Below, in pieces: positions 13,813 to 53,307 of a DNA stretch of 64,000 bases; positions within the stretch are counted from its first letter, which is position 1, and every line of letters starts with the position of its first letter. The notes under the pieces were generated by a model. The model worked only from the letters and a program-made list of their open reading frames with translations, did not search any database and was not told the origin of the DNA. A program made the translations under genes and the position numbers. Source of the stretch: a virus; the IMG/VR virus record IMGVR_UViG_3300021387_002242, positions 2,864-66,863 of that record; one strand, written 5' to 3'.

Positions 13813-13861
13813 TGTTGGCAACCCCTTTCTTGGTCGGTGGTGTGTTCCTCTTTCTGGGGTA

Positions 13862-13908
13862 ATATTACAATAGAACTATTGTAAAGTAAAGCTAAATGAA
13901 TGATAACT
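13862..13908 (-). promoter_or_regulatory. conserved leftward promoter/operator element, copy 3 (TTTACT-N17-TAATAT)
   Basis: Reverse complement reads agttatcattcatttagcTTTACTttacaatagttctattgTAATAT. Confidence 0.55.
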
Positions 13909-16546: not shown

Positions 16547-16593
16547 CTGTGTGTCCTCCTTTCATTTATTAGCTAAATGTATTTTAACATAAA

Positions 16594-16619
16594 AAATTAG
16601 CTATTTCAAGAAAAATAAA
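16594..16619 (-). promoter_or_regulatory. PRM-like promoter for the repressor (TTGAAA-N17-TAAAAT on the minus strand)
   Basis: Hexamers spaced 17 bp apart, upstream of the cI RBS. Confidence 0.4.
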
Positions 16620-16642
16620 ATAGCAAAAAGACAATTATTAAC

Positions 16643-16671
16643 TTGACATTCAGCTATCAATGTGATACACT
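16643..16671 (+). promoter_or_regulatory. PR-like early promoter (TTGACA-N17-TACACT)
   Basis: Near-consensus hexamers; a TTAGCTAAAAG operator-like site overlaps +1. Confidence 0.55.
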
Positions 16672-16703
16672 TAGCTAAAAGACAAAAGCAGAGGGGTGAG
16701 ATA

Positions 16704-24346: not shown

Positions 24347-24375
24347 TTGACTTTTAGCTAATTATATTATACAAT
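24347..24375 (+). promoter_or_regulatory. strong sigma-70-type promoter (TTGACT-N17-TACAAT)
   Basis: Intergenic, just upstream of the RBS of the DGQHR gene. Confidence 0.55.
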
Positions 24376-27133: not shown

Positions 27134-27661
27134 ATGGCAAGAAAAGAGCCGTATACAGCAGCTAGGCAGAAACGCAATCAGCGCAGCTACATGAAAAAAG
27201 TGGCAGAGCATAGATGCGTGACGTGCGGCAAACCGGATGAACGCACATTGAGTGGGCGAGTTTACTGCCAGGAGTGCTACGACAGGCACAAGGCAGGAGC
27301 CAGCCCGAGAAAGCCCAGGACGCCGGCGCAAAGCGAATCAGAAAAACAGGATAAGCGGGAGTGGGAAGCGCGGTGCAAATCGCTTCAAATGTGCGTCAGA
27401 TGTGGCGAAAAAGACAAGTATACGGTAAATGGGCACAGGCTGTGTAAACGGTGCTCTGAGAGAAAGAACCAGAATCAACGCGAACACTACGATCATGAGA
27501 AAATGAGTAGCTATTACAAGGCCAGACGAGACGCATGGCGGCAGCAAGGGTTGTGTACTTACTGCGGCGGCGAAAAAGAGGAACCAAACAAGATGCTCTG
27601 CATTGATTGTCGAGTAAAGGCGAGGATGCAGAGACGAAAGAGGGAGGCAGAAAAACAGTGA
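27134..27661 (+). CDS. triple Zn-ribbon repeat protein (possible regulator)
   Basis: Three CxxC-N15-CxxC repeats. Confidence 0.45.
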   Translation: MARKEPYTAARQKRNQRSYMKKVAEHRCVTCGKPDERTLSGRVYCQECYDRHKAGASPRKPRTPAQSESEKQDKREWEARCKSLQMCVRCGEKDKYTVNGHRLCKRCSERKNQNQREHYDHEKMSSYYKARRDAWRQQGLCTYCGGEKEEPNKMLCIDCRVKARMQRRKREAEKQ

Positions 27662-28185
27662 AGGTAACTTGCATTTACTGGCCGGAGGACCGGGAAAGGA
27701 TGCTGTTCAAGAGATGTGTGTGGGCTACAATGAACCGCGTTTCGGAGCCAAAGGAACTCCCGATGCCCCAGCTCATACGCGATCTGATAAATGCCAGGCA
27801 CAGCCCGATCAGGGTGCTTAACTTCGCGTTTTTGATCGAGGATATACCGTCCAACATCGCAACTCACCTGACCCGTCATGTACACGCGGTGCCGTTCGTT
27901 TCCAGTCTTCGGAATGATCGGCAGAACAAGATAGATGGAGATAATGCACCGCGGAACACTCCGGTAAACATGGTTCTATTCTGCAACTGTGAAGAACTGC
28001 TGACGATAGCGAACAAGCGGCTCTGTTCACAGGCCAGCGCGAAAACTCGCCACGTGGTGAAAATGATGTGCGACGCGGCGACGGAGAAAATGCCTGAGCT
28101 GGAAGGGTACTGTGTCCCGATGTGCGAGTACATGGGGGGAATCTGTCGAGAGATGAACTGCTGCGGCCGGCATCCGAAACGATAA
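27658..28185 (+). CDS. divergent ThyX-like (flavin-dependent thymidylate synthase fold) protein with a Cys-rich C-terminus
   Basis: SPIRVLNFAFLIEDIPSNIATHLTRHVHA...SSLRNDRQ parallels the ThyX core SP.EH..FTF.IeG.SR....QL.RHR.....S.RY, but RHR has become RHV; GTG start overlapping the upstream stop. Confidence 0.35.
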   Translation: MKVTCIYWPEDRERMLFKRCVWATMNRVSEPKELPMPQLIRDLINARHSPIRVLNFAFLIEDIPSNIATHLTRHVHAVPFVSSLRNDRQNKIDGDNAPRNTPVNMVLFCNCEELLTIANKRLCSQASAKTRHVVKMMCDAATEKMPELEGYCVPMCEYMGGICREMNCCGRHPKR

Positions 28186-40571: not shown

Positions 40572-41162
40572 GGCAACACAATGCACCCGATACGTGTTAA
40601 TATGCAAATGTGCACATCCGGGGCCACGTCGTCCCGGTGCATTATGCGAGCGGTAGATGAATAGTCCCGCTCACAGGTTGTGCTACCCGGGGACTTTCCC
40701 AAAGCGGTGCTCGGGAGCGGGATTTAAACAAAGAGTGTGGGGCTTTACAGTTTTCACCCATACCGCCTCCTTTTCACGTTGGTGGGGACGGGTGAGGCAA
40801 CAAGAAAACAACGCGACACCGGAGCGCGTAATCTCCGGAGACATGCCGTTGCTGGACAGCTTGCGCCCAGGGGAACCGCCTGGACTGGCTCCCGGTTCGA
40901 CACCGGGGACGGCACCACGTGACTTCTGGCATGGGATTTGTCATTGGTCACCTCCTTTCCAGGCTATAAGCCGAGCCGCATACTTCTTGTTGGGCTTTGC
41001 AGATTCACCAGCAAGCGGTATGGGTGCCCGCCTGTCGTCACCGTGTGGTTTGCCGGGACGATCAAAGGCGGGCTAAAAGGGTAAGAGCTTTGCACGCGAG
41101 CCGAGAGGCAGCGAACCACGCAAGGACATTTATACAGGCCAGAGTAAAGATCTGGCCACGTG
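40572..41162 (+). ncRNA. candidate large structured non-coding RNA (ROOL/GOLLD-like?) immediately upstream of the tRNA
   Basis: About 590 nt, GC-rich with many short complementary segments and no credible ORF (the track ORF 40657-41076 is P/G/R-rich and not coding-like); abuts a tRNA in a prophage, the characteristic context of ROOL/GOLLD RNAs. Confidence 0.3.
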
Positions 41163-41238
41163 GGAGATTAGCTCAGTAGGTAGAGCAGCAGGCCGTTAAC
41201 TTGCGCGTCCGGGGTTCAAGTCCCTGATTTCCCGCCAG
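41163..41238 (+). tRNA. tRNA, probably Asn (GTT anticodon), with encoded CCA
   Basis: Cloverleaf folded by hand: acceptor GGGAGAT/ATTTCCC, D-arm GCTC-AGTAGGTA-GAGC, anticodon arm GCAGG-CCGTTAA-CTTGC, T-arm CGGGG-TTCAAGT-CCCTG, discriminator G plus CCA. Position 33 is C rather than U, which is unusual. Confidence 0.65.
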
Positions 41239-41497
41239 CCCAGTATACAATAGGGTTCCAAGTGTAATGCGCCACTTGAACAAAAAGCACGGGTGTCCCG
41301 GGATAATGCTTGTATGCGGCAAAAGCCCGGGCCGATCTTCAGACGTTGTGGGGTAAACAGCGTCCACCAACACAATGCCGGGTAACGCGAGGGTGTTTAC
41401 ACCAGCCCGCGAGGGTGGTAGTCGCGCCGGATTGTTTAGGCGGTTAATGGCGTACAGAGATACGCCGACCGCCTTTTTTCATGCTGTAGGAGGCTCC

Positions 41498-41610
41498 ATG
41501 AAAATCATACAGAAACCAACAGAGCAGCTTATACCTTACGCGGCAAATGCCAAGCTGCATGATGAAACGCAGATCGCAAATGTAGCGAACAGCATAAAAA
41601 ATGCCCCCGA
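41498..41610 (+). pseudogene. 5' remnant of a ParB-like nuclease-domain gene, truncated by a cassette insertion
   Basis: MKIIQKPTEQLIPYAANAKLHDETQIANVANSIK is about 80% identical at nt level to the 5' end of 41986-43272, then diverges into the cassette terminator. Confidence 0.5.
41528..41599. repeat. direct repeat (about 72 bp, about 80% identical, 26-nt perfect core) with 42016-42087, flanking the inserted cassette
   Basis: aagctgcatgatgaaacgcagatcgc core is identical in both copies. Confidence 0.5.
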
Positions 41611-41618
41611 AGGGGGGC
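41593..41618 (-). terminator. terminator of the leftward cassette
   Basis: cccccgaagggggg hairpin with a T-run on the minus strand. Confidence 0.4.
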
Positions 41619-41620
41619 GG

Positions 41621-41896
41621 TTAGCCAACGTTGGGAAGCCGGTAGGGGTAATGCCCGTACAAAGCACGGTAGGCTTCGGTGTATGGCGCGTAGCCGTGGC
41701 CTTCCAGCAGGTACTGCCGGGTCTTTTCCAGCAGGGCGATCATGAACTCGCGGTGCATGGTGACCGTAACCCGCGTCCGAACCTTCATGGGTTCGACTTC
41801 GTACATACCGAAGTCGGTCATGCCGTACTTCTCGGCGACATTGAACAGGGCGGCAAGGGCATCACGGTGAATGTTGAAGGTGATGGTAGACGTCAT
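41621..41896 (-). CDS. hypothetical protein (cassette cargo)
   Basis: 91 aa, downstream of promoter copy 4. Confidence 0.45.
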   Translation of the reverse strand: MTSTITFNIHRDALAALFNVAEKYGMTDFGMYEVEPMKVRTRVTVTMHREFMIALLEKTRQYLLEGHGYAPYTEAYRALYGHYPYRLPNVG

Positions 41897-41927
41897 GGTA
41901 ACAACCCCTTTGCTTTTTGTTGTAAAC

Positions 41928-41975
41928 AGTATAGCATAAAAAATGATGCAAAGTCAAGCTAAGAGTATGATAAAC
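41928..41975 (-). promoter_or_regulatory. conserved leftward promoter/operator element, copy 4 (TTGACT-N18-TATACT)
   Basis: Reverse complement reads gtttatcatactcttagcTTGACTttgcatcattttttatgcTATACT. Confidence 0.55.
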
Positions 41976-41985
41976 GGGGTATGAA

Positions 41986-43272
41986 ATGAACATAGTCAGT
42001 ATGCCAACGGTAGACCTCATACCGTATTCCGCAAACGCGAAGCTGCATGATGAAACGCAGATCGCTAACGTTGCGAACTCAATAAAACGCTTCGGGTGGC
42101 AACAGCCCATAGTGGTAGACGACAACAATGTGGTCGTCATAGGCCATTGTCGTCTGCTTGCGGCGAAGCGGCTGGGACTACAGGAAGTCCCAGTGACGGT
42201 TGCCAGCGGTTTGACGGATGAAGAAATCCGAGAACTGCGAATCGCAGACAATAAGACCAATGAAAGCGCCTGGAACTGGGAAATGCTGGAACAGGACAGG
42301 GCTGGTCTTGCGTTTGACGGCTTCGAGTTCGAGTGGGTGAATCCGGACGGTGAGGAACCGGCATTCGAGGAACCAGAGGCCATAGAGGATAACTTCGACG
42401 AAGAAGATATTCCCGAAGAATCCGACATCAAATACGGCGATGTTTTCCTGCTCGGCCGGCACAGATTGGTCTGCGGTGACAGCACGAATATTGACGACGT
42501 AAAGAAGCTGATGGACGGAGCACAGGCTGATCTGTTCCTGACAGACCCGCCGTATAACGTGGACTACCATGGCAGCACTGGCATGACGATAGCGAACGAC
42601 AGCATGGAGGATAGCGCGTTCAGAGCGTTCCTCACGGATGCTTTCAGTAACGCAAACCTGGTCATGCGTCCCGGGGCTGCTATTTATATATGGCATGCAG
42701 ACAGTGAGGGCTTCAACTTCCGCGCCGCTATGCGTGAAGTAGGCTGGAAGCTGCGCCAGACACTAATCTGGGTAAAGAATGCCCCGGTGCTAGGCCGCCA
42801 GGATTACCTCTGGAAACATGAGCCGGCACTTTATGCGTGGAAGGAAGGAACTCACTACTTCACCAGCGACAGGACAAACAAAACAGTCTTTGACGACAGA
42901 ATCGACATAAAGAAACTCAAGAAGGAAGAAATGAGAGCGCTTCTTGAGAAAATCTTTGCCGACAGAGTGCTGACGACGGTCTTGTACGAGGACAAGCCGC
43001 TGGTGAACGATCTCCACCCAACCATGAAACCGATTCGGCTCATGGCGCGGTTGATTGCCAACAGTTCACAACCCGGGTGGCGGGTGCTTGACTTGTTCGG
43101 TGGCAGTGGTTCAACGCTGATGGCTTGCGAGCAGCTCGGGAGAACATGCTACACTATGGAACTCTCCCCGACTTACTGTTCCGCAATCATAAAGCGCTAT
43201 ATCAAGTTCACCGGCGAGGATGTGTTCTTACTCCAGGACGGAGAAAAAATACAATATATCCCGGAGGATTGA
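41986..43272 (+). CDS. ParB-like nuclease domain fused to an N6-adenine/N4-cytosine DNA methyltransferase
   Basis: N-terminal ParB-N (IPY.ANAK.H...IANSI..FG..QPIVV...VV.GH.RL.AAK.LG); C-terminal DPPY (LTDPPYN) and FGGSGST AdoMet-binding motifs. Confidence 0.75.
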   Translation: MNIVSMPTVDLIPYSANAKLHDETQIANVANSIKRFGWQQPIVVDDNNVVVIGHCRLLAAKRLGLQEVPVTVASGLTDEEIRELRIADNKTNESAWNWEMLEQDRAGLAFDGFEFEWVNPDGEEPAFEEPEAIEDNFDEEDIPEESDIKYGDVFLLGRHRLVCGDSTNIDDVKKLMDGAQADLFLTDPPYNVDYHGSTGMTIANDSMEDSAFRAFLTDAFSNANLVMRPGAAIYIWHADSEGFNFRAAMREVGWKLRQTLIWVKNAPVLGRQDYLWKHEPALYAWKEGTHYFTSDRTNKTVFDDRIDIKKLKKEEMRALLEKIFADRVLTTVLYEDKPLVNDLHPTMKPIRLMARLIANSSQPGWRVLDLFGGSGSTLMACEQLGRTCYTMELSPTYCSAIIKRYIKFTGEDVFLLQDGEKIQYIPED

Positions 43273-43389
43273 GCCGAAGCACCAGGAGGCCGCAAGAAGC
43301 CGTGTGACGGGCCTAGATTTGAGACAAACAAAGAGACGCCCCCGAGCGAACAAGGCGCGTCAGGGGCGAATGTGGGGCACTGTGAGCCT

Positions 43390-43542
43390 TTAGACGGAGA
43401 ACACAACGTTGTTGGTCTGCGTGTTGACGATTTCTACGACGGACGTATCAAATACGTTGCCGAGCAGGTCAGACAGGACGCGGGTCGAGTAAAGGCCGGT
43501 GTATTCGTCGTAGAAGGTAATCTGGATCTGGGAAGCGTCCAT
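43390..43542 (-). CDS. hypothetical small protein (50 aa)
   Basis: RBS aaaggaggattacccATG; below the track cutoff. Confidence 0.3.
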   Translation of the reverse strand: MDASQIQITFYDEYTGLYSTRVLSDLLGNVFDTSVVEIVNTQTNNVVFSV

Positions 43543-43566
43543 GGGTAATCCTCCTTTCGATTGCGG

Positions 43567-43716
43567 TTAGTCGTCTTCGCTGAGAATTCCGAGTTCAACA
43601 GCGAACCAGAAAAAGTCGGCGTTGCACCTCATGCCATTTGGAAGCTCAATGCTGGCTTCGTTCCTCACCTGGTTTTTGAGATACCAGCGACGCCAGCGGG
43701 TGGGGATTGTGTACAT
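43567..43716 (-). CDS. hypothetical small protein (49 aa)
   Basis: RBS gaaaggaaaccg; below the track cutoff. Confidence 0.25.
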   Translation of the reverse strand: MYTIPTRWRRWYLKNQVRNEASIELPNGMRCNADFFWFAVELGILSEDD

Positions 43717-43746
43717 CACGACGGTTTCCTTTCTGCCCTTATGATT

Positions 43747-44010
43747 TCAAGGGTGGGTGAAGTCCAGGCAATCAAGCAATTGGGTGACGGTAGAGCGCGT
43801 CTTGCAGGTCAGATCTTCAACCAGGCTGATCTTGACGGCGATGCTCTTAAAATCGTTACGGATGGCTTCGACGACCTCGCGGGTCGGATATTCTAGGTCA
43901 GGGCAGGAAAAGAAATTCTGGATATCATCGAGCAGAGAAGCGGCTTTCACCATATCCCAATGGATGGTGGTTAAGATGTCTTCGTAGTCGATCTTGATGC
44001 TGGTTGCCAT
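43747..44010 (-). CDS. hypothetical protein
   Basis: 87-aa ORF in the leftward cassette. Confidence 0.35.
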   Translation of the reverse strand: MATSIKIDYEDILTTIHWDMVKAASLLDDIQNFFSCPDLEYPTREVVEAIRNDFKSIAVKISLVEDLTCKTRSTVTQLLDCLDFTHP

Positions 44011-44061
44011 GGTAGTTCATCCTTTCTACCGGGATTATGGCTCCCGGTTGGTCTTGGTTGA

Positions 44062-44400
44062 TTAGGCGGCGGGGGCGATCTGAGTGTCGCTGTAGACGAA
44101 GTAGGACTGAATCCGGGTGCCCTTCTTGGTGGTCGGGTCGGCAACCTCGACCTTGAAGGTGGCCTCGCTGGTGTGTATCACCATACGGCCCAGCGCTTGC
44201 CAACCGGCCCAAGTGTGATACTCTTCTTCGACACCGGCAGCTTTCGCGGCGGCATCGACGATCTCGGCGTTAGCGGCCTGGACCTTGATCCAAGCCCACG
44301 CGGCGCGAAGCGCGTCCGCAAACGTGGCAGCGGCTTTCTTGCTGGCTTTGCGATACAGGCTCCAAGCCTTGTACATCAGCTTCGACAGATCGTACTTCAT
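44062..44400 (-). CDS. hypothetical protein
   Basis: 112 aa; first gene after promoter copy 5; RBS gaaaggagaaacc. Confidence 0.4.
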   Translation of the reverse strand: MKYDLSKLMYKAWSLYRKASKKAAATFADALRAAWAWIKVQAANAEIVDAAAKAAGVEEEYHTWAGWQALGRMVIHTSEATFKVEVADPTTKKGTRIQSYFVYSDTQIAPAA

Positions 44401-44445
44401 GGTGGTTTCTCCTTTCGTTGGTCGGTGCTCTTTCGTTCTGGGTAC

Positions 44446-44492
44446 ATATTACACTGTATAAAGTACAAAGTCAAGCTAAGTGTATGATAACT
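44446..44492 (-). promoter_or_regulatory. conserved leftward promoter/operator element, copy 5 (TTGACT-N17-TAATAT)
   Basis: Reverse complement reads agttatcatacacttagcTTGACTttgtactttatacagtgTAATAT. Confidence 0.6.
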
Positions 44493-44550
44493 CCTGAAAT
44501 TGCGTTGCTATTCTCACCTTGATAAGGTACAATATACTTGAGGTGATTTT

Positions 44551-44781
44551 ATGGCAATGACAGAGGCAAGGAAAAGAGCGAACAAGAAGTGGAACGATGC
44601 TCATATGAAGGAATTTTATGAGCGGGTGACGATGATCGTTCCAAGGGGCCAGAAGAAAACCATAGAGATGCGGGCAAAAGAAATCGGAACAGGACTGAGC
44701 GGGTACCTGAATATGCTGGTAAAGGCCGATCTTGGTGTGTCCGATGATGAATGGAAGGGCATAGACACAAAGCAGCCATAG
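44551..44781 (+). CDS. small DNA-binding-like protein
   Basis: 76 aa, basic N-terminus; RBS-less but coding-like. Confidence 0.35.
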   Translation: MAMTEARKRANKKWNDAHMKEFYERVTMIVPRGQKKTIEMRAKEIGTGLSGYLNMLVKADLGVSDDEWKGIDTKQP

Positions 44782-44912
44782 GGGCTACGGATAAAAGAAT
44801 AGGCAAAAACGAAAAGGACAGACGTAGTGATGCGCTTGTCCTTTTGTTAGCATAAACAGCAAGATAGATGTGGCGATTGCCGATTGACTATAAACGCTAG
44901 GGGGAGTAAGAT

Positions 44913-45677
44913 ATGGGCAGGGGAAGGAGCGGACGGGTAGCGACCCGGTCAGCGTCGAGAGCATCGACAACCCCAAGGGCACAGCAGCGCATGACACCGC
45001 AGGAGCTGGACGACTTCTTCCAGAGGGCGAGCGACAATGACGTAGACCAGATGCATGTTGCATTGAGGCAGGAGCGTATGGATAATGACAACCGCAGCAA
45101 TGATAACGATGTGCAACGATTCTTTCATTATATCGGCTGGTCTGAAAACACGCCGCAGGCTCTTGATGAAACGCAGTTCCAGGCGGCGTGGAATGCTGCA
45201 GGACGTCCTAAAAAGCTGTACCATTCTGATAAAGATGCGGGTGGTGCAACGGCGCAGGATTTTGCACAGCAGTACTTCGGCAATGGCTATGATTTCAGCG
45301 GCAACCGATATCGCCAATATATTAGCAATGGCTATTATGGCGGTGGTACATACTTTGCAGATAGTGCTATAGACTCAAGATATTACGGAACTAACCAGTT
45401 CCGTGGATTTTTGAATAACAATGCCAAAGTAATAAAGGTCGGTAGGCTGCAATCCCAATACAATGCATATGAAGCGGCACATCCCGCGTTTAAACGAATG
45501 ATGTCAAAAATATCCACAGGATACGGTGGCAATGCTGAAAAACTATCGATTTATGCCGCGATGAAGGGATATAACGTTATCGAAGAAGGTAGCGGATACT
45601 ACGTGGTGCTGGATAGAAGCGCGACTACAGTATCCACAAAGACTAGGAGCACAAGAGGCATAAGGAGCAATTGGTAA
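44913..45677 (+). CDS. protein with an MGRGRSGR Arg/Gly-rich N-terminal module (paralog of the ART-like protein; C-domain unassigned)
   Basis: Shares the N-terminal MGRGRSGR...S/T-rich leader with 45948-46787; RBS gggggagtaagatATG. Confidence 0.45.
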   Translation: MGRGRSGRVATRSASRASTTPRAQQRMTPQELDDFFQRASDNDVDQMHVALRQERMDNDNRSNDNDVQRFFHYIGWSENTPQALDETQFQAAWNAAGRPKKLYHSDKDAGGATAQDFAQQYFGNGYDFSGNRYRQYISNGYYGGGTYFADSAIDSRYYGTNQFRGFLNNNAKVIKVGRLQSQYNAYEAAHPAFKRMMSKISTGYGGNAEKLSIYAAMKGYNVIEEGSGYYVVLDRSATTVSTKTRSTRGIRSNW

Positions 45678-45690
45678 GGAGGAACAGAAA

Positions 45691-45882
45691 ATGGCGAAAG
45701 CTACGAATGGACGGGAACGGAGCGATCAGATGATCTGGCTGCGCAGAGCGGCAGAGGGCAAGCTGCCCAGGGTCACGCCGGAGATGAAAAAGGATCTGAT
45801 GGCTAACAAGGAGCTGCGGCAGCTCGCCGTGAAGAACGGTGTGCTCCCGGCATCGAAGCCGGCGAAAATGACCAAGAAGTGA
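45691..45882 (+). CDS. small basic protein
   Basis: 63 aa, K/R-rich; followed by a terminator. Confidence 0.35.
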   Translation: MAKATNGRERSDQMIWLRRAAEGKLPRVTPEMKKDLMANKELRQLAVKNGVLPASKPAKMTKK

Positions 45883-45895
45883 ACAACCAGGTACA

Positions 45896-45926
45896 CCAGG
45901 CAGGGTTAGACACCCTGCTTTTTTTG
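45896..45926 (+). terminator. rho-independent terminator
   Basis: cagggttagacaccctg hairpin plus ctttttttg. Confidence 0.55.
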
Positions 45927-45947
45927 TGCCCATAAGGCGGTGAGAGA

Positions 45948-46787
45948 ATGGGACGTGGAAGAAGCGGCAGGAGTTCTGGCACCAGGCAGCAGACGGTGAC
46001 GCTTCCAACCTGGGGTGAGGCTTTTGGTGACGGCAACGATTACCAGTCGACCCGTGATGTCGATCACGTTTCAAGAACTGTTACGCGGCGGCTGCAGCAC
46101 GACTGGGATCAGTTCGCGGATGATTATCAGTCTGGCATAACTTCTATGGATGTACAGCGATTGATGAAAGACTACGACCCGTATACGGATTCTTTGTACG
46201 GGTATGTCAGAACATCGAATTCGTTTGCTATAAACGAAAAGCTGTACGACGATCAGAACGTCAATAAGACTGATGACCAGATCTTCACCCGGCGAGATCA
46301 AAGGGGCGTGCTTAGAGATTTGCAGACAGTCCAAACTCTGGACAAGGCGATCAATAGTCATACCACTAAGCGTAATGCCACCTACACGCGGTTCTCTACA
46401 CCGGCAGCAGTTCAAGCGTTGTACGGTTTGAATAACCAGCAGATGTCGATCCTGCAAAATGCCAGGGGCATGAACAATCAACAGCTCAAAGCACTGAATG
46501 ATTCATTTGCAGGTAAAACTAGTTACTCTCGAGCATATACATCTACTTCCGCAAACCGATCTATGAATGCTTTCGGCAACTTGAACGCGCGGCATTCCAG
46601 AAACATGGTGTTCGAAAGAAAGCTGTACATGCCACAGGGTACAAACGCTTTTGCGGTTAAGCAGAACGCGCAAGAGAGCGAGGTCATCTTCGGCCGGCAT
46701 GCGAACACTAGGCTGATGAAGGTCACGGTTGCGAGCGACGGACACATCGTGCTACATGAGATGTTCACCGGTTATAATAGGCATTGA
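45948..46787 (+). CDS. ADP-ribosyltransferase-like effector (R-S-E class) with the MGRGRSGR N-terminal module
   Basis: Y-x-STS (AYTSTSANRS) and Q/E-x-E (QESEVIF) motifs with upstream aromatic-Arg (YGYVR) fit C3/VIP2-type ART signatures. Confidence 0.55.
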   Translation: MGRGRSGRSSGTRQQTVTLPTWGEAFGDGNDYQSTRDVDHVSRTVTRRLQHDWDQFADDYQSGITSMDVQRLMKDYDPYTDSLYGYVRTSNSFAINEKLYDDQNVNKTDDQIFTRRDQRGVLRDLQTVQTLDKAINSHTTKRNATYTRFSTPAAVQALYGLNNQQMSILQNARGMNNQQLKALNDSFAGKTSYSRAYTSTSANRSMNAFGNLNARHSRNMVFERKLYMPQGTNAFAVKQNAQESEVIFGRHANTRLMKVTVASDGHIVLHEMFTGYNRH

Positions 46788-46843
46788 CTTTCTGACGAAG
46801 GTGTGCCATAATCCGTGTGAGGAAACAATAGGAGGAAAACACA

Positions 46844-47029
46844 ATGCCCAGAAAGAATGACGAGAGAGCGGCTACAAAGCGGTTTGTAGACCAGCCGGGC
46901 CAGTGGATCGATACAACCCCGGCAAGCGTGAAGAAGCGCCAGGAAAAGGCGTGGCAGAAGCTCCAGGCGATGCTGAAAGAAAACCCCATCGATACCAAGG
47001 GTACCAGGGGCGGCAGCAAGAAGAAGTAA
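46844..47029 (+). CDS. small basic protein
   Basis: 61 aa, K/R-rich, followed by a terminator; same layout as 45691-45882. Confidence 0.35.
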   Translation: MPRKNDERAATKRFVDQPGQWIDTTPASVKKRQEKAWQKLQAMLKENPIDTKGTRGGSKKK

Positions 47030-47052
47030 AACTCACCGACATTATAACGGAC

Positions 47053-47083
47053 AAAGCAGCGGCATAAAACCCGCTGCTTTTTG
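47053..47083 (+). terminator. rho-independent terminator
   Basis: agcagcggcataaaacccgctgct plus ttttg. Confidence 0.55.
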
Positions 47084-47102
47084 CGCCCTTTGAAATAAAA
47101 CC

Positions 47103-47786
47103 ATGACGATAACAGGAATTGCGGTTGATGCTCTGAAAAGGTACAACAATAACGCAAAGGAACATCCACAGGAGCAGATCGACAAGATCGCTGAGAGCAT
47201 CCGTCAATTTGGTTTCAGGCAGCCGATAGTTGTTGACAGCAGCAACGTGGTTGTTATTGGACACGGACGGCTTCTTGCAGCAAAGGCTCTGGGGATGAAG
47301 CAAGTCCCGTGCGTGGTTATTGACGACCTGACAGAGGACGAGATCAACGCACTTCGCCTGATAGACAATAAGCTCAACGAAAGCAAATGGGACTTTTCCG
47401 CTCTTGAAGATGAACTCGCCACTATCGTCGACATCGACATGTGGGATTATGGATTCGAGCCTTTCAGTGAGCAGGAAATGGAAGCGGCTACGGCGGCATT
47501 TCAGGAGCGCGTAGAAGCCATGGCGCAGGAAACGCGCCCAGACGGCCAGGAAGGGCCATATGAGCGCGGCTACACTGTAGGGCAAAGAGAGACAAGCCCG
47601 TATGCAACGGCAGGAAATTACGGCGTTTCTGGACGTCCAGCGAATCAGCTCCAAGCGACATACCCGCACGACGAATACGGATATGTAGATGAATATGGGC
47701 GGCAGATCGTGGGAGAGCGCAGCCTGATAGAGGCAAACCGGGAGTACCGGTATGTATGCCCACGGTGCAAGCATCGGTTCAACTGA
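47103..47786 (+). CDS. ParB-like nuclease-domain protein
   Basis: ParB-N motifs (AKEHPQEQIDKIAESIRQFGFRQPIVVD...GHGRLLAAKALG); C-terminal Zn-ribbon CPRCKH. Confidence 0.7.
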   Translation: MTITGIAVDALKRYNNNAKEHPQEQIDKIAESIRQFGFRQPIVVDSSNVVVIGHGRLLAAKALGMKQVPCVVIDDLTEDEINALRLIDNKLNESKWDFSALEDELATIVDIDMWDYGFEPFSEQEMEAATAAFQERVEAMAQETRPDGQEGPYERGYTVGQRETSPYATAGNYGVSGRPANQLQATYPHDEYGYVDEYGRQIVGERSLIEANREYRYVCPRCKHRFN

Positions 47787-47797
47787 AAAAACCCAGC

Positions 47798-47998
47798 TCA
47801 GTGCTGGGGCAGGTACACGGGGTATTTACCATATATGGCCTTGAATGCTTCTGCGAACGGAGTAGGGTCACCGGTATCGCAGAGAACTCTAAAAGCCTTA
47901 CGCAAAGCCCGCTGCTTTTTCAGCTGCCGAATCTGCTTGATGGCATCGTAGTTCTGCATTGTTGCGGCCTCCTTTCGGGTCAAGTTAATGGTTTGCAT
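47798..47998 (-). CDS. hypothetical small protein
   Basis: Leftward cassette cargo. Confidence 0.4.
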   Translation of the reverse strand: MQTINLTRKEAATMQNYDAIKQIRQLKKQRALRKAFRVLCDTGDPTPFAEAFKAIYGKYPVYLPQH

Positions 47999-48027
47999 CC
48001 TTTCTTGGTTGTTGAAAACGATGGGGC

Positions 48028-48264
48028 TTAGTCTATGAAGTAAATTCCGTTTTCTTCGTGGAAGCAGGTGTTGCCGAACTCGTTTCTGATGATAAAGTCT
48101 GCATCTTCTTTCGTAGCAGGGAGTTCGACGCCATTCCCATAGATTGCATCACCATCGTGGTTGATGTCGTTTAGGTCGTGGACATAAAGCCCTACATACG
48201 TCTCGCCGTCGTAGATGTACTTGATCTCGGTGAACTCGATGTTGTTGATAATGACAGTATTCAT
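48028..48264 (-). CDS. hypothetical small protein
   Basis: First gene after promoter copy 6. Confidence 0.4.
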   Translation of the reverse strand: MNTVIINNIEFTEIKYIYDGETYVGLYVHDLNDINHDGDAIYGNGVELPATKEDADFIIRNEFGNTCFHEENGIYFID

Positions 48265-48309
48265 TGTGGTAACCTCCTTGATCCGTTGCGTTTCCTTTGG
48301 AACGATTAC

Positions 48310-48356
48310 ATACTACATCAGAAATAATGTAATGTCAAGCTAAATGAATGATAACT
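48310..48356 (-). promoter_or_regulatory. conserved leftward promoter/operator element, copy 6 (TTGACA-N17-TAGTAT)
   Basis: Reverse complement reads agttatcattcatttagcTTGACAttacattatttctgatgTAGTAT. Confidence 0.6.
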
Positions 48357-48367
48357 GCGAGGACGAG

Positions 48368-48883
48368 ATGAACGTAAGGAACATAGACCCGAATGCGGTG
48401 ACGCTCTACGAGAAAAACGCGAAGTTTCACCCGCAGAGCCAGATAGACCGCATAGCAAAGAGCATAGAGCGGTTCGGGTTCAGACAGCCGGTGGTAATTG
48501 ACGGCAACGGCGTGGTGATTGCTGGGCACGGGCGCGTCCTTGCTGCCAGGCAGATCGGGCTGACAGAGATACCGTGCGAGATTGCCGACGACTTGACACA
48601 GGAACAGGCAAAGGCGCTCCGTTTGATAGACAACAAGCTCAACGAAAGCAAGTGGAAGGACAGAGCGCTCAAATTCGAGCTGCTGGACATCTCTCCGGAG
48701 ATCGGCCTGGACGAGTTCGGCTTTGATATGCCTGATATGCTTCCGCGCGACGAATCTACGGATAATGTGCCGTATCAGGACGAGGATGTGCTGCGCGGCG
48801 CTTACGAATATTCTGGAGAGAGTTTCAGCGATGACCAATTCCAGTGCCAGTGCCCGGAGTGCGGGTTCAGATTCAACCCATAA
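48368..48883 (+). CDS. ParB-like nuclease-domain protein
   Basis: ParB-N motifs; C-terminal CQCPECG Zn-ribbon. Start placed after the promoter element, because the ATG at 48344 lies inside it. Confidence 0.65.
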   Translation: MNVRNIDPNAVTLYEKNAKFHPQSQIDRIAKSIERFGFRQPVVIDGNGVVIAGHGRVLAARQIGLTEIPCEIADDLTQEQAKALRLIDNKLNESKWKDRALKFELLDISPEIGLDEFGFDMPDMLPRDESTDNVPYQDEDVLRGAYEYSGESFSDDQFQCQCPECGFRFNP

Positions 48884-48941
48884 ATACCCGTGGAAATGGT
48901 GGCTCAAAGACCTAGATAGCGTCCCGAAAAACGGACACAAA

Positions 48942-49907
48942 GTGTTCAGCTGCTTCTCCTGCGGCGGCGGTTCGTCGATGGGCTATAAGCTGGCAGGTTA
49001 TGAAGTGGTCGGAAACGTCGAGATAGACCCACGGGTCATGAAGCTGTATCAGGACAATCTCCACCCGAAACACCCGTTCTTGATGGATGTTCGGAACTTT
49101 CTGGAAATACCGGATAGTTCGCTGCCTCAAGAGCTTTTTACGCTGGACGTTTTGGACGGCAGCCCGCCATGCAGCACGTTCAGCTTGCTCGGCGAGCGGG
49201 AAGATGCGTGGGGGAAAGAAAAGGTATTCAGAGAGGGACAGGCAAAGCAACGGCTGGATGACTTGTTCTTCTTTTTCATAAAGATCGCGGACAAGCTCAA
49301 GCCCAAGGTGGTTGTAGCGGAGAATGTCGCCGGCATATTGAAGGGCAACTCCAAGGGCTATGTCAATGAGATTATCAAAGAGTTTGACGCGGCTGGATAT
49401 GCCGTTCAGGTATTTCTGCTTGACGCGGCGCGAATGGGTGTGCCCCAGATGCGACAGCGGGCGTTCTTCATTGCCAGGAGAAAAGACCTTGGTCTGCCGA
49501 AGGTTGTGCTGGATTTCAACGAAAAGCCTATTCTTTTCGGGGAGGTACGGACACCGGAAGGTCTGGACTTGCCTCCGAATGGCAAGCTCATAAGGCAGCT
49601 CAAGTACATGAGGCCGACAGACAAGTACGTCAAGGACATCGTGAAGCGGCTCTACGGCGCAGAGACGAACTTCAGCACGACGATCAACCACGATCACTAC
49701 GTTGCACGCACGGTGACGGCCGGAGGCTCGTCGGTACGTGGGTACGACAAGAAGATGTGTACTGACGGCGACTTCGTGAACATGCAGACATTTCCGCAGG
49801 ACTATGACTTCCAAGGTCAGCAGGTACGCTATATCTGCGGCATGAGCGTTCCTCCGGTAATGATGGCCCAGGTGGCAAGCGCAATCAACGACCAAATGTT
49901 CAGGTGA
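48942..49907 (+). CDS. DNA (cytosine-5)-methyltransferase
   Basis: Motif I FSCFSCGGGSSMG, motif IV PPCSTFS, motif VI ENV(AG), C-terminal motifs. No ATG is in frame; the GTG at 48942 is the only candidate start, so the start is uncertain. Confidence 0.7.
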   Translation: MFSCFSCGGGSSMGYKLAGYEVVGNVEIDPRVMKLYQDNLHPKHPFLMDVRNFLEIPDSSLPQELFTLDVLDGSPPCSTFSLLGEREDAWGKEKVFREGQAKQRLDDLFFFFIKIADKLKPKVVVAENVAGILKGNSKGYVNEIIKEFDAAGYAVQVFLLDAARMGVPQMRQRAFFIARRKDLGLPKVVLDFNEKPILFGEVRTPEGLDLPPNGKLIRQLKYMRPTDKYVKDIVKRLYGAETNFSTTINHDHYVARTVTAGGSSVRGYDKKMCTDGDFVNMQTFPQDYDFQGQQVRYICGMSVPPVMMAQVASAINDQMFR

Positions 49908-49911
49908 AAAC

Positions 49912-51012
49912 ATGTATCTGGAAATACGCCGGGTGGAAGACATACACCCATACGAGAACAACCCCAGAATCAACGATGACGCTGTGCGTCCCGTGGTGGA
50001 ATCCATCAAAAAGGACGGATATCGGGCGCGAATCATCGTGGACAAAGACGGGGTTATCATTGCGGGCCATACGCGATACAAGGCAATCCAGCAGCTCGGG
50101 TGGAAGGAAGTCGAAGTGTGGGTGGCAGACGACATGTCGCCCAAGCAGATCAAGGATTACCGAATCCGTGACAACCGCACGAGCGACTATGCTCGCTGGG
50201 ACTTCGAGGCTCTGGAAAAAGAGATTACGCAGTTTCAGCTCGACCCAATGGATTTCAGCTTTGATATGCCGGAGCCGGAGCGAGAGGGCGTAGAGAGCGA
50301 CTACAGACCGTTCTCAGAGCGTGACGATGCCGAACAGATGGTCGATGAAGACCAGGTATCGCGGCTTACGCATAACGTCTTTGAGAATTTCGAGATGGAC
50401 TTCGAGCCGGAATACACCGGAAAGTACGGCATCCCGAAGATGGCACCGACGCAGATGACCGGCGATAAGTTCATGCGGTTCTGCGACTGGCGCGGGGTTA
50501 CAGACCACGAAAAGTACATAGCGCACTTTTACTACGATGACTTCAAGTTCATCAAGGCGTGGCGTGACCCGGATTACTACATCGAGCGCCTAAAGTGGTT
50601 CAAGGCGGTAGTCGCCCCGGATTTCAGCTTGTACACTGATTTCCCGGTGGCGCTGCAGATACTTTCCTGTTACCGGCGACAGTGGGTAGGCGCATACTGG
50701 CAGAGCTTGGGAATAGACGTTATCCCGGATGTGGTCTGGGGCGACAAAGCAAGCTATGAGTTCTGCTTCGACGGCATACCCAAGCACAGCACAGTCGCGG
50801 TTTCCAGCGTGGGCGTAAAGCTGGATGAAGACTGGAATGGCAAGAGTGACAGCTTGTTCAGGAAGGGCTACGAAGAAATGATCAAGCGGCTGGAACCGAC
50901 GACGATCATGTTCTACGGGGACATCCTAGAAGGGCTGGAAGGGAACATCATTCAGATACCGTCATACTACGCACAACGGCGGGATGGAAGCTGGAAAGAC
51001 GTCTACAAATAG
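49912..51012 (+). CDS. ParB-like nuclease N-domain fused to a DUF4417-like C-domain
   Basis: HPYENNPRIN...IIAGHTRYKAIQQLG ParB-N; C-terminal W/Y/F-rich domain resembling DUF4417. Confidence 0.55.
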   Translation: MYLEIRRVEDIHPYENNPRINDDAVRPVVESIKKDGYRARIIVDKDGVIIAGHTRYKAIQQLGWKEVEVWVADDMSPKQIKDYRIRDNRTSDYARWDFEALEKEITQFQLDPMDFSFDMPEPEREGVESDYRPFSERDDAEQMVDEDQVSRLTHNVFENFEMDFEPEYTGKYGIPKMAPTQMTGDKFMRFCDWRGVTDHEKYIAHFYYDDFKFIKAWRDPDYYIERLKWFKAVVAPDFSLYTDFPVALQILSCYRRQWVGAYWQSLGIDVIPDVVWGDKASYEFCFDGIPKHSTVAVSSVGVKLDEDWNGKSDSLFRKGYEEMIKRLEPTTIMFYGDILEGLEGNIIQIPSYYAQRRDGSWKDVYK

Positions 51013-51014
51013 CG

Positions 51015-51380
51015 GTGAACGATATGGGCAACAGCAATCGAAAATATACGACGAAGGTTGATGCACCACACTACGAGCCAACCAACAAGAATGTGAGGCT
51101 TGAAGATTGCTACGATCGGAGCAAATACGACAAGCTTATAAGTTCCATCATGCTATCGGATGTAACGCCGCGAGAGAAAGAGTTTCTTTGCCTTGCAGCG
51201 ACGCGACACTTGGCATTTGACTATAGGGAAATCGCAAACTATTACGCGAACAATGCCAGCGCGACGATGCAAAAGCTGATGGAGGAATCAGCGCTTGTCA
51301 TTATCGACTATGAGGATGCGATAAAGCAAGGCTATGTCAGGCTGTCGAAGCACCTTGAGAGGATAATGGAAAATGCGTAA
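51015..51380 (+). CDS. hypothetical protein
   Basis: 121-aa ORF. Confidence 0.35.
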   Translation: MNDMGNSNRKYTTKVDAPHYEPTNKNVRLEDCYDRSKYDKLISSIMLSDVTPREKEFLCLAATRHLAFDYREIANYYANNASATMQKLMEESALVIIDYEDAIKQGYVRLSKHLERIMENA

Positions 51381-52239
51381 CTATGCTGTATTCATTATCT
51401 CACATGGCAGGAGCGATAACGTCAGGACATATCCGACCTTGCGCAAGCATGGGTATACAGGCCGAATAATCATTGTTATCGACAATGAGGACGAACAGCA
51501 GGAGAAATATATCCGGAGATTTGGCAGCGAGAACGTATTCATTTTCGACAAAAAAGCAGAAGAGGCCGAAATGGATACAGCCGATATTTCTGGAAACATG
51601 CATTGCGCTGTGTTTGCGAGGCATTACTGCTTTAAGCTGGCAAGGGAGTTGGGCTTTGACTACTTTATCGAGTCAGATGATGACTATGTTCGCTTTGCTT
51701 ACAGGGAAGAGCAGGACGGCAAGCTGAAAGAATACCATTGCTACAAGCTTGATGAAGTGTTCGAGGCAATGTTCCAGTTTCTTGACGATACCAACGCACT
51801 TTCAGTCGCACCGGCACAGGATGGAGACTATCTTGGTGGAGCAAAAAGGCCATTCTGGATTAACCGAGTGAGCCGAAAGTGCATGAATCTGTTCTTTTGC
51901 CGAACAGACAGACCGATACACTTTGTTGGGAGAATCAACGAAGATGCGACAACATACACCAGATATGCACAGGTTGGCGAGCTGTTCTTTACGGTGGCTG
52001 ATTGGTGCTTGAAGCAAATGCCGACCCAGCTGCAAAGTGGTGGAATGACAGAGGCTTATCTTGATGTTGGCACATACGTCAAATCATTCTATACGCTGAT
52101 GTTCAGCCCATCCTGCGTGACGATATTCGCAATGGGCTGCAACAATGATGATGACGGTAATTACAGGCTGCACCACAGGATAAACTGGCGAAAATGCACG
52201 CCTATGATTATCAGCGACAAGTACAAGAAGCCGATATGA
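51373..52239 (+). CDS. glycosyltransferase-like protein (GT-A-type DxD motif)
   Basis: Rossmann-like N-terminus FIISHGRSDNVRTY and an ESDDDY DxD motif. Confidence 0.35.
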   Translation: MRNYAVFIISHGRSDNVRTYPTLRKHGYTGRIIIVIDNEDEQQEKYIRRFGSENVFIFDKKAEEAEMDTADISGNMHCAVFARHYCFKLARELGFDYFIESDDDYVRFAYREEQDGKLKEYHCYKLDEVFEAMFQFLDDTNALSVAPAQDGDYLGGAKRPFWINRVSRKCMNLFFCRTDRPIHFVGRINEDATTYTRYAQVGELFFTVADWCLKQMPTQLQSGGMTEAYLDVGTYVKSFYTLMFSPSCVTIFAMGCNNDDDGNYRLHHRINWRKCTPMIISDKYKKPI

Positions 52240-52258
52240 AACGGCGAAAAAGGCAGGG

Positions 52259-52732
52259 GTGAACATTGGACGTGGAAGGTTTAGAAATAGGGCAAGAAAC
52301 GCGAGAAGTCGCGCCGGTACAAGCAGGGCTGCTGCTGTCAGAGTAGCAAACAACTACGGGACACTTGTTCACACATACGGTGATGGTACACGTCGATATG
52401 AAAAGGCCGAAACGGTATCGTCTGCAAACCTGAACGATGAACAAAGAAACTGGATCGGCGCAATGAGTAATGTCGTACAAAGTGACATTCGTGATGCTAT
52501 AGCCGCAGACGGCGCAAACCCGTCGAGAATCGATATTGATTTGGATAATGGACGTGTTACTGCATGGGTAAATGTTTCGCGTCAGGCATCTCCTAGCGGA
52601 CTAGCGAAAGCATATTACGACATCGACTATGACTTCACAGTTAGAACAAGAGTTAAGGCTGACGGCACTATCAAACGCGACAATGTTTATAAAGGATTAA
52701 GACTTAGACTGGTAGGCGCAACCGCATACTAA
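52259..52732 (+). CDS. protein with a GRGRFRNRARNARSRAG Arg/Gly-rich N-terminus (third member of the RG-leader set)
   Basis: GTG start; the N-terminal leader resembles the MGRGRSGR module; lies directly upstream of the terminase genes. Confidence 0.4.
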   Translation: MNIGRGRFRNRARNARSRAGTSRAAAVRVANNYGTLVHTYGDGTRRYEKAETVSSANLNDEQRNWIGAMSNVVQSDIRDAIAADGANPSRIDIDLDNGRVTAWVNVSRQASPSGLAKAYYDIDYDFTVRTRVKADGTIKRDNVYKGLRLRLVGATAY

Positions 52733-52764
52733 AACACCCAAGGAACAAAAGGGGGCGACTAACG

Positions 52765-53307
52765 ATTGCACGGACAAAGAAACTTGACTGGAACGCAATA
52801 AAGGCGGAGTACATCGGCGGTGGAATAAGCCAAAGGAAGTTAGCCAAGAAATACGGCGTTTCAGAAACCACGCTGATGAAAAAGGCCAACGCTGAGGGAT
52901 GGGCGACGCTGCGTAGGGAAGCAGACAGCAAAAGTGCAGCACTCGCACAGCAAAGGACAGCAGATGCAGCAGCGAACAACGCGGTGAAGCTCGAAAAGGC
53001 TCGGGGGCTGTTGATAGACAAGATTCTATCAGCAATCGAGCAGATGCCCAAACACGGTGGAACGCATACCAGGCAGAGCCAAACAGACAAGGAAACCGGC
53101 AAGCAAATGTCGATTGATTATGATCTATCAGCTCTGGTTTCCGCGTTTGAAAAACTCACTACGGGCACTACTGCAGACATTGAACGCCAGAAACGATTCG
53201 TTGAGGAAAACAACACAACGCTCATGGGCTATGCGGATTTGTTCTCACGGCCGGCGAGACAGCGCACGATAGAAGAACTGGAAAGGGGCAAGGATGTATC
53301 AGATTGA
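52765..53307 (+). CDS. terS: terminase small subunit (apparent ATT start)
   Basis: N-terminal HTH DWNAIKAEYIGGGISQRKLAKKYGVSETTL is typical of TerS; it is only recovered by starting at ATT 9 nt after aaaggggg; the first ATG is at 52876. Confidence 0.5.
   Translation: MARTKKLDWNAIKAEYIGGGISQRKLAKKYGVSETTLMKKANAEGWATLRREADSKSAALAQQRTADAAANNAVKLEKARGLLIDKILSAIEQMPKHGGTHTRQSQTDKETGKQMSIDYDLSALVSAFEKLTTGTTADIERQKRFVEENNTTLMGYADLFSRPARQRTIEELERGKDVSD

Follow-up and report, generated by a model that had tools for sequence, protein, structure and literature searches.

ParB-like genes, DNA-modifying enzymes and inverted cassettes in the accessory region of a temperate phage genome

Morons were originally described in lambdoid phages and in HK97. 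They are independent transcription units located between neighbouring genes and are often beneficial to the host (PMC3594210). Among phage ParB-like proteins, one without a DNA-binding domain is known to activate its cognate 5mYOX thymine dioxygenase on double-stranded DNA (PMC13229309). Fusions of ParB with methyltransferases and with DUF4417 are enriched in phages and prophages, according to the accessible part of a survey of ParB-CTPase-fold fusions (10.1101/2025.10.10.680097), and members of the TET-associated glycosyltransferase (TAGT) family act on hydroxymethyl-pyrimidine bases or on an existing sugar (PMC13390438). Here we describe how genes and units of these kinds are arranged at positions 41498-51012, and just beyond, of a 64,000-nucleotide (nt) stretch of viral DNA (IMG/VR record IMGVR_UViG_3300021387_002242, positions 2,864 to 66,863). 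The whole stretch is called the window, and all coordinates refer to it unless a related contig (L001, L002 and so on) is named.

The window is a temperate phage genome with an integrase and a cI/cro-type switch, and the accessory region in question sits immediately upstream of the terminase genes. The explanation that we favour, with a probability of about 0.6, is that ParB-coupled modifying enzymes transcribed rightward are interleaved with three leftward morons, which are exchanged by recombination and would be controlled by the switch. An earlier description of the same DNA, produced by a model from the letters and a list of open reading frames (ORFs) and called the original prediction here, had counted five ParB-N domain units within about 9.5 kb, with minus-strand cassettes composed of a terminator, one or more small genes and a conserved promoter placed between them. 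This layout stands. A tblastn search of the window with the four N-domains returns exactly five units (41498-41599 and those beginning at 41986, 47103, 48368 and 49912), that is, four intact genes and a remnant of 34 codons, and all three cassettes (A, B and C) are discrete units of the type described, B having a weak terminator. The features are as follows (lengths in amino acids, aa; 'the 12-mer' is the motif ATWCAYTTAGCT, discussed below).

41447-41599, plus strand: native upstream context and 34-codon ParB remnant (41498-41599), with a terminator hairpin (GGCGGT..ACCGCC-T6) and a ribosome-binding site (GTAGGAGG)
41600-41976, minus strand: cassette A, with terminator 41603-41618, 91-aa gene 41621-41896, promoter 41928-41957 and 12-mer 41957-41968
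41986-43272, plus strand: ParB-N fused to an N6/N4 DNA methyltransferase, 428 aa (PF02195, 4e-07; PF01555, 1.3e-29)
43335-44492, minus strand: cassette B, with promoter 44446-44474, 12-mer 44474-44485, weak terminator at about 43340-43355, and genes 44062-44400 (112 aa), 43747-44010 (87 aa), 43567-43719 (about 50 aa) and 43390-43542 (50 aa)
47103-47786, plus strand: standalone ParB-N protein ParB_227, 227 aa (PF02195, 4.4e-10)
47787-48356, minus strand: cassette C, with terminator 47792-47808, promoter 48310-48338, 12-mer 48338-48349, and genes 47798-47998 (66 aa) and 48028-48264 (78 aa, acidic)
48368-48883 or 48344-48883, plus strand: standalone ParB-N protein ParB_179 (PF02195, E=1.7e-05), of 171 aa from the ATG at 48368 or 179 aa from 48344
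48831-49907, plus strand: C5 cytosine DNA methyltransferase, 358 aa (PF00145, 1.4e-40, Pfam search on ORF 48723-49907)
49912-51012, plus strand: ParB-N fused to DUF4417, 366 aa (PF14386, 4.1e-54; PF02195, 7.3e-05)
51015-51380, plus strand: 121-aa protein matching the C-terminal part of the ParB-like family phrog_620
51373-52239, plus strand: TAGT-family glycosyltransferase (PF20691, 2e-39)

At the PF02195 cut-off of 26.3 bits, two of the four ParB_N scores lie above and two just below (25.2 and 23.2). The N-domains are mutually 33-56% identical, match ParB structures by sequence (7bnk, E=7.7e-05) and carry an aligned GHxR motif corresponding to the GxxR of box II (GHCR, GHGR, GHGR and GHTR). 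Pfam finds no helix-turn-helix (HTH) domain in any of the four proteins and a ParA-type ATPase is absent from the ORFs scanned; these are therefore not canonical partition ParB proteins. The label 'nuclease' given to such domains is an old Pfam name and not a result. ParB_227 ends in a zinc-ribbon-like tail (CxxC..F) and has an orthologue at L060 1864-2580. The N6/N4 methyltransferase contains a DPPY motif (LTDPPYN in the translation), and the orthologues of this fusion in L001-L003 are 59-70% identical to it. Homologues of the ParB-DUF4417 fusion are found 1-4 kb upstream of the large terminase gene in L034-L039.

The C5 methyltransferase carries motif I (FSCFSCGGG, of the form FxGxG), motif IV (GSPPC) and AENV in its translation. 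The original prediction had seen no in-frame ATG for this gene and had suggested a GTG start or a fusion to ParB by frameshift. It was right in that no ATG lies between the ParB stop codon at 48883 and motif I. Neither device is needed, since there is an in-frame ATG at 48831, inside the ParB_179 gene and preceded by a ribosome-binding site (GGAGAGAG), so that the two genes overlap out of frame by 53 nt. L002 and L003 have the same ATG, a GAGGAGG ribosome-binding site and an out-of-frame overlap of about 50 nt with the zinc-ribbon tail of the ParB protein. The start codon has to lie ahead of the GTG at 48942, since the peptide PWKWWLKDL, whose coding sequence starts at 48888, is retained in L032, L002 and L003. 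We reject this GTG start, and also the frameshift fusion, in view of the conserved ATG and ribosome-binding site within the ParB gene. The start proposed by the gene caller (M86) would cut off motif I. In 24 of 56 IMG/VR loci with a homologue of the methyltransferase, a ParB_179-like gene lies immediately upstream, and the two alignments either overlap by 22-58 nt or are separated by a gap that is mostly 26 nt or less. The ParB and C5 methyltransferase genes form a conserved pair that is probably translationally coupled. We found no description of this overlapping-gene (trans) arrangement in the parts of the fusion survey that were consulted (10.1101/2025.10.10.680097).

ParB modules are placed next to post-replicative DNA-modifying enzymes in more than one way: by fusion in the ParB-N6/N4 methyltransferase and in ParB-DUF4417, and through an overlapping upstream gene in ParB_179 and the C5 methyltransferase. 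We propose that the TAGT is served by a split version, in which the ParB-N part of ParB-DUF4417 would act together with the 121-aa protein, resembling a ParB C-terminal domain, that precedes the glycosyltransferase. In L027 a homologue of this 121-aa protein is fused to ParB-N in a single ORF (9896-10702), with a TAGT gene directly downstream of it. In each case the ParB module would load its modifying enzyme onto double-stranded DNA, or activate it there, and the modified products would shield the phage DNA from restriction. We infer this activator role by analogy with the ParB-dependent phage dioxygenases.

The tight operon composed of the C5 methyltransferase, ParB-DUF4417, the 121-aa gene and the TAGT suggests a pathway. 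Of the steps in a route from C5 methyltransferase through a TET enzyme to a glycosyltransferase, the window has the methyltransferase and the TAGT. There is no TET/JBP match (PF12851 type) among the plus-strand ORFs of at least 175 aa within 18-53 kb or among the left-arm genes, a profile scan that a highly diverged enzyme could escape. DUF4417 was considered as a stand-in for TET; synteny gives this no support, ParB-DUF4417 being usually found without a C5 methyltransferase or TAGT. No solved structure matches the DUF4417 domain by sequence, and a scan of genome contigs with ParB-DUF4417 returned one distant contig from a metagenome-assembled genome, which actually encodes a ParB-N6/N4 methyltransferase. 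A diverged or split enzyme resembling flavin-dependent thymidylate synthase may be encoded at 27134-28185 (plus strand), which bears on the substrate of the TAGT: of two overlapping ORFs there, the second (27607-28185) has a match (PF02511, 3.6e-10) restricted to the C-terminal part of ThyX, and genes for a radical SAM protein and a dUTPase are nearby.

The other components named in the original prediction are also present: a DGQHR protein (motif at 24598, ORF 24412-25215), a PAPS-reductase-like protein (19645-20370, phrog_424, 2e-32) and a glycosyltransferase-like protein, which is the TAGT (PF20691, 2e-39, 51373-52239). The modification repertoire is elaborate, as had been claimed. It is typical of the phage ParB, methylase and DUF4417 genes covered in the survey (10.1101/2025.10.10.680097).

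Cassettes A and C each have a clear predicted intrinsic terminator abutting the stop codon of the upstream plus-strand gene. Ratios of non-synonymous to synonymous substitution against homologues are 0.19 for the 91-aa gene of cassette A, 0.20 for the 112-aa gene of cassette B and 0.12 for the 78-aa gene of cassette C; such values indicate purifying selection, and these three genes are therefore real. Among 5.8 billion proteins, the 91-aa product has one homologue only; the family of the 112-aa product numbers more than 265 members, and the acidic 78-aa protein (isoelectric point 4.1) has 24 cluster representatives. A scan of metagenome contigs with this last protein returned the same phage only. 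Its AlphaFold2 model has a predicted local distance difference test (pLDDT) score of 95 and gives no significant Foldseek match in the Protein Data Bank (PDB). The model of the 112-aa protein (pLDDT 91) gives weak matches in the PDB to the Rad4 BHD and to the N-domain of ArdC. The C-terminus of the 66-aa protein of cassette C resembles that of the cassette A protein and that of an ORF in L060.

All three units have their own predicted promoter and terminator (weak in B), and in related phages cassettes are lacking (L002 and L003), cassette A is at another site (L032) or the same junctions have other cargo (L060). We therefore classify the cassettes as morons. Integron-type cassettes were considered and rejected: the ends are a promoter and a terminator, and no inverted repeat is shared between cassette ends. 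There is no integron integrase, the only integrase found being a phage-type tyrosine recombinase 26 kb away.

The promoters of the cassettes form a family. A 25-nt pattern (GTTATCATWCNNTNNGNTTGACWTT) matches the window six times, where 0.01 matches would be expected, and each time on the minus strand. The copies can be aligned over about 55 nt, including an upstream element, TTGACT, a conserved spacer, TAATAT and CCAGATCAAGG (family D1), and score between E=1e-13 and E=7e-19 with an nhmmer profile. They are close to the sigma-70 consensus, with the arrangement TTGACT-17-TAATAT and often an upstream TG, and those of the cassettes match it at 9-10 of 12 positions. Three copies head the cassettes. 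The remaining three, together with the other landmarks of the phage, are as follows.

2378-2447, minus strand: fourth promoter copy (pattern at 2446; nhmmer E=3e-18), heading a leftward accessory unit
10776-10846, minus strand: fifth promoter copy (pattern at 10845; E=7e-19), leading small genes that end at an ArdC-like gene
13838-13908, minus strand: sixth promoter copy (pattern at 13907; E=4e-14), leading a unit of amidoligase, DpnD/PcfM, GGACT and ADP-ribosylglycohydrolase genes
14553-15722, minus strand: tyrosine integrase
16154-16546, minus strand: HTH_3 repressor-like gene, which with an M78 peptidase gene lies opposite a Cro-like gene
16571-16676: cI/cro-type intergenic region with an inverted pair of 12-mers, at 16571-16582 (minus) and 16665-16676 (plus)
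replication genes: replisome organiser and DnaB
from 52876: terminase small and large subunit genes

An exact scan of IMG/VR for the 25-nt pattern gave 0 matches; the diverged copies in relatives are found only with the nhmmer profile, in L032, L053 (three copies), L059 and L060 (six copies, all on the minus strand). L053 also has the unit composed of amidoligase_2, DpnD/PcfM, GGACT and ADP-ribosylglycohydrolase genes. The terminators are also alike: cassette A, L032 and, twice, L060 have the form AAAAGCCCCC-loop-GGGGGCGG. A type II hammerhead ribozyme is matched at 1747-1811 (minus strand; Rfam RF02276, 41.2 bits, gathering score 37), directly downstream of a 126-aa ORF (2191-1811) in the unit headed by the 2446 copy of the promoter.

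The link between these promoters and the switch is the 12-mer ATWCAYTTAGCT. It has exactly eight sites in the window, against 0.77 expected: six are in the family promoters, at about -47 to -36 and abutting the -35 element in every case, and two are in the cI/cro region. There they overlap the -10 elements of divergent promoters, TTGAAA-17-TAAAAT (minus) and TTGACA-17-TACACT (plus). The same operator-like sequence, with the core TTAGC (12-mer form ATACACTTAGCT), is found at the switch and at the cassettes. The palindrome TTAGCTAA, which is the core of the 12-mer, is confined to the two cI/cro sites and one further promoter, at 24347-24375 (plus strand; TTGACT-17-TACAAT, with the palindrome in its spacer), which is upstream of the DGQHR-motif gene (24412-25215). 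In L053, whose repressor HTH domain is 63% identical, the site in the rightward promoter is conserved as ATACAATTAGCC. A scan of IMG/VR with the cI-like repressor gave zero matches. These sites lead us to predict that the cassettes belong to the regulon of the immunity switch, with one DNA-binding protein of the switch also controlling them. Most likely they would be strong early promoters, held off in the lysogen and expressed after infection or induction. Repression is the more likely sign of control, given promoters this close to the consensus and a dimer that, if centred on AGCT, would lie over the -35 element. Early expression would fit a counter-defence cargo (the ArdC-N-like protein and ArdC).

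Comparison with relatives indicates that the cassettes are mobile, as the original prediction had suggested: both their sites and their cargo differ, and the units are not fixed at the same positions. In the window, the C5 methyltransferase and ParB-DUF4417 genes are 4 nt apart; in L032 a homologue of cassette A (73.6% nt identity over 41592-41973) lies between them. The ParB, C5 methyltransferase and ParB-N6/N4 methyltransferase genes of L002 and L003 are contiguous, without a cassette. L060, which is the closest relative in IMG/VR and whose C5 methyltransferase is 67% identical, keeps the order ParB_227, ParB_179, C5 methyltransferase, ParB-DUF4417 and has a different minus-strand cargo at every junction, with six cassettes in all. 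For example, an FtsK-like ATPase gene occupies the cassette C site, genes of 79 and 222 aa occupy the site that cassette A has in L032, and a homologue of the 66-aa gene of cassette C lies upstream of ParB_227. The cargo genes also occur in other contexts. Homologues of the 112-aa gene are found in the integrase-proximal arm of L053, behind the same type of promoter, and within a small integrative element in L049-L052. Those of the 78-aa gene in L058 and L059 are likewise inverted with respect to their neighbours, the L059 copy having both the family promoter and its own terminator. The left edge of the L060 array includes a further ParB-like gene with a GGHQR motif (238-900, plus strand) and a putative ASCH-like ORF, identified by eye (866-1315, minus strand).

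The history of cassette A can be followed at its junctions. The original prediction had reported direct repeats of about 72 bp around it, about 80% identical with an identical 26-nt core, and these are significantly similar: 41528-41599 and 42016-42087 are 81.9% identical over 72 nt (blastn against the whole window, E=1.5e-15). The repeat can be extended to 84 nt at 79% identity, and the core is at 41552-41577. Over its length the remnant is 79% identical to the start of 41986-43272 at the aa level and 74% at the nt level, falling to 47% at third codon positions. It is equally close (73-74% nt identity) to the orthologues in L002 and L003, and the two copies are therefore diverged alleles rather than the products of a fresh duplication; on the same figures, a recent tandem duplication was rejected as the origin of the remnant. 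Its upstream 50 nt and the remnant itself align with the context of the single intact ParB-methyltransferase gene in L001. Past codon 34, L001 follows the full copy of the window, whereas the remnant enters the cassette terminator. Compared with L001, the window has an insertion of 488 bp, composed of cassette A and a second set of codons 1-34. At the left junction there is a microhomology of 6-9 nt (ATAAAA), where ParB codons 33-34 meet the A-run that encodes the U-tract of the terminator; in L032 the same A-run comes after the stop codon of the C5 methyltransferase. Residues L..ET within the 26-nt core are common only to the two window copies and are not found in the orthologues.

We infer a one-step exchange as the simplest history, with the following order of events. 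The resident phage would have recombined with a co-resident phage bearing cassette A upstream of its own intact ParB-methyltransferase allele. The left join would have been illegitimate, at ATAAAA inside the resident ParB-methyltransferase gene, leaving its 34 codons, and the right join would have been a homologous crossover somewhere within or past that gene. A later short conversion tract would account for the 26-nt core and the L..ET residues common to both copies. More generally, cassettes would be swapped by recombination between co-resident phages.

Other routes to the same structure have to be considered. In the original prediction, the 5' coding sequence of ParB genes was the recombination anchor by which cassettes move, and cassette A entered through flanking ParB homology. 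The repeats do flank cassette A exactly, the core with its L..ET residues suggests gene conversion between the copies, and three of four cassette placements (window A, window C and L032) are directly upstream of a ParB gene, an adjacency that by our own estimate is weakly significant at best (about 0.04-0.14), the region being dense in ParB genes. One junction did truncate a ParB gene. Use of the ParB 5' end as a general anchor is unsupported: tblastn finds a single remnant in the window, the L032 cassette is cleanly intergenic and has none, and no ParB-N remnant is detected in L060 beyond its three ParB genes. Moreover, the left junction is a microhomology of 6-9 nt with the terminator T-tract and not a homology arm, and outside the core the repeats are 74% identical, with 47% at third codon positions. 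We consider the anchor unlikely; exchange could at least as plausibly take place at the conserved promoter and the look-alike terminators. Alternatively, tandem ParB-methyltransferase genes could once have surrounded cassette A, with an internal deletion from ATAAAA (codons 33-34) to the terminator sequence ATAAAAAA. The microhomology at the junction, the native upstream signals kept by the remnant and the parallel ParB, cassette, ParB arrangement at 47103-48883 are all compatible with this. It requires two events (acquisition, then deletion) instead of one, and no relative with two tandem ParB-N6/N4 methyltransferase genes was seen, which makes it a doubtful account. That the structure is an assembly artefact, a chimeric contig fused at repeated ParB or promoter sequences, would be a natural suspicion for a 76-kb metagenome scaffold from ENA with repeats. 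Other parts of this phage are, however, 99.98-100% identical across four independent public datasets (ENA, Logan, NCBI and JGI). In addition, cassette A and the ParB-methyltransferase protein are each recorded on three contigs with mostly the same neighbours, and repeats of 74-82% identity are too diverged to mislead an assembler. An artefact is thus extremely improbable.

A further alternative concerns the role of the cassettes rather than their origin. They could be lysogenic-conversion, defence or superinfection-exclusion genes expressed from the prophage, in the manner of classical morons or of the variable hotspots in P2-like phages, with the immunity protein activating their promoters. 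The variable cargo at fixed junctions between conserved genes would suit such a role, as would the other promoter copies, which stand in front of accessory units in the integrase-proximal arm. The centre of the 12-mer is close to -41, and lambda CI activates PRM from near -41. Morons, too, are independent units often benefiting the host (PMC3594210). Against this, promoters so near the consensus (TTGACT-17-TAATAT, often with an upstream TG) should need no activation, no cassette protein matches PADLOC, and the likeness of one cargo protein to the N-domain of ArdC, which is an anti-restriction protein, points to counter-defence and not defence. Activation in the prophage is possible, and we lean towards early, repressor-controlled expression.

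Several observations weigh against the joint explanation of ParB-coupled enzymes interleaved with exchanged, switch-controlled morons. The promoters and terminators are consensus predictions. The position of the 12-mer differs, being at -47 to -36 in the cassettes and on the -10 element at cI/cro; the same protein could activate the cassettes, or the similarity could reflect common descent of promoter DNA. The L032 promoter is without the TTAGC core. Pfam, PHROGs and PADLOC gave no useful match for the cassette proteins, whose models have at best weak structural matches. About 30 of the 56 C5 methyltransferase homologues have no ParB gene within 4 kb, and ParB is therefore not obligatory for this family; likewise, ParB-DUF4417 occurs without a C5 methyltransferase or TAGT in other phages. 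The relatives compared are only a handful, several of them short contigs. A broader formulation, in which the ParB-CTPase fold would be an interchangeable loader (in trans for C5, in cis or split for N6/N4, DUF4417 and TAGT) and the cassettes an immunity-tied regulon whose conserved brackets of promoter and terminator would serve as portable recombination frames to swap counter-defence cargo between phages, is speculative and is offered tentatively.

Some additional features of the region were recorded. A non-coding element of about 160-200 nt, with 75-78% nt identity between copies, is found at 40645-40800 (plus strand), L001 1261-1427 and L003 2107-2301. RNAalifold predicts several hairpins, and 15 of their 72 predicted pairs show compensatory changes (three sequences only); there is no Rfam family match. 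The L001 and L003 copies immediately precede a tRNA gene or an array of four tRNA genes, and the window copy is followed by tRNA-Asn(GTT) (41162-41237). At 41367-41445 (plus strand), just ahead of the terminator hairpin that precedes the ParB remnant, the DUF3800-VII RNA motif (RF02967) has a borderline match of 35.7 bits, marginally under its gathering score of 36.2 (E=4e-05). Three plus-strand proteins, starting at 44913, 45948 and 52259, have similar arginine-rich N-termini (MGRGRSGR, MGRGRSGR and MNIGRGRFRNR), and their start regions also constitute a DNA repeat family (D6). One of these (45948-46787, plus strand) has an ADP-ribosyltransferase exoenzyme domain, so the phage carries both an ADP-ribosyltransferase and an ADP-ribosylglycohydrolase (10859-11818, minus strand).

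The region is a clear, well-resolved and largely ordinary example of phage genome mosaicism. All components belong to known kinds, and the results overturn nothing in current understanding. A megablast search of 41000-53300 against 50,697 deposited phage genomes gave zero matches, with no likeness at the DNA level, and many of the relatives used here are metagenome-derived viral contigs. Two features are less ordinary: the genome-wide, lineage-conserved promoter and terminator bracket bearing a motif of the cI/cro region, and the overlapping ParB and C5 methyltransferase pair, which is widespread. Should this pair work as a functional unit, methyltransferases, and perhaps glycosyltransferases, would join the phage dioxygenases as enzymes that depend on ParB. 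This would explain why ParB-like genes crowd phage modification clusters. A TAGT without a recognisable hydroxylase raises the question of which base is glycosylated. The shared bracket provides a testable handle on accessory-gene exchange and co-regulation in a mostly uncultured phage lineage.

Temperate phages of the P2/P4 type have variable accessory and defence hotspots at fixed junctions, and mycobacteriophage stoperators are repeated repressor sites. The window resembles these in its conserved flanks, its variable cargo and its short repressor-type motif repeated in one orientation. Unlike the P2/P4 hotspots, its cassettes have no known defence genes detectable with PADLOC and, unlike the stoperators, the repeated unit is a whole promoter and not just a binding site. 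The 5mYOX systems (PMC13229309) share with this locus a short ParB without an evident DNA-binding domain beside a post-replicative enzyme in a modification cluster. They differ in the neighbouring enzymes, which in the window are a TAGT and a C5 methyltransferase whose start overlaps the ParB gene, no dioxygenase having been found. The N6_N4 methyltransferase and DUF4417 fusions of the ParB-CTPase-fold survey (10.1101/2025.10.10.680097) are seen here too; as a point of difference, the window packs both fusions, two standalone ParB genes and a remnant into 9.5 kb. The cassettes are most readily compared with phage morons (PMC3594210), having one to four genes per unit, their own promoter and terminator, locations between genes that are adjacent in a related phage, and a cargo spread over unrelated contexts. 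Unlike described morons, they all face against the surrounding genes and share a promoter family of about 55 nt and look-alike terminators, with six copies per genome and conservation in related phages, and this promoter family carries a motif that is also present at the cI/cro promoters.

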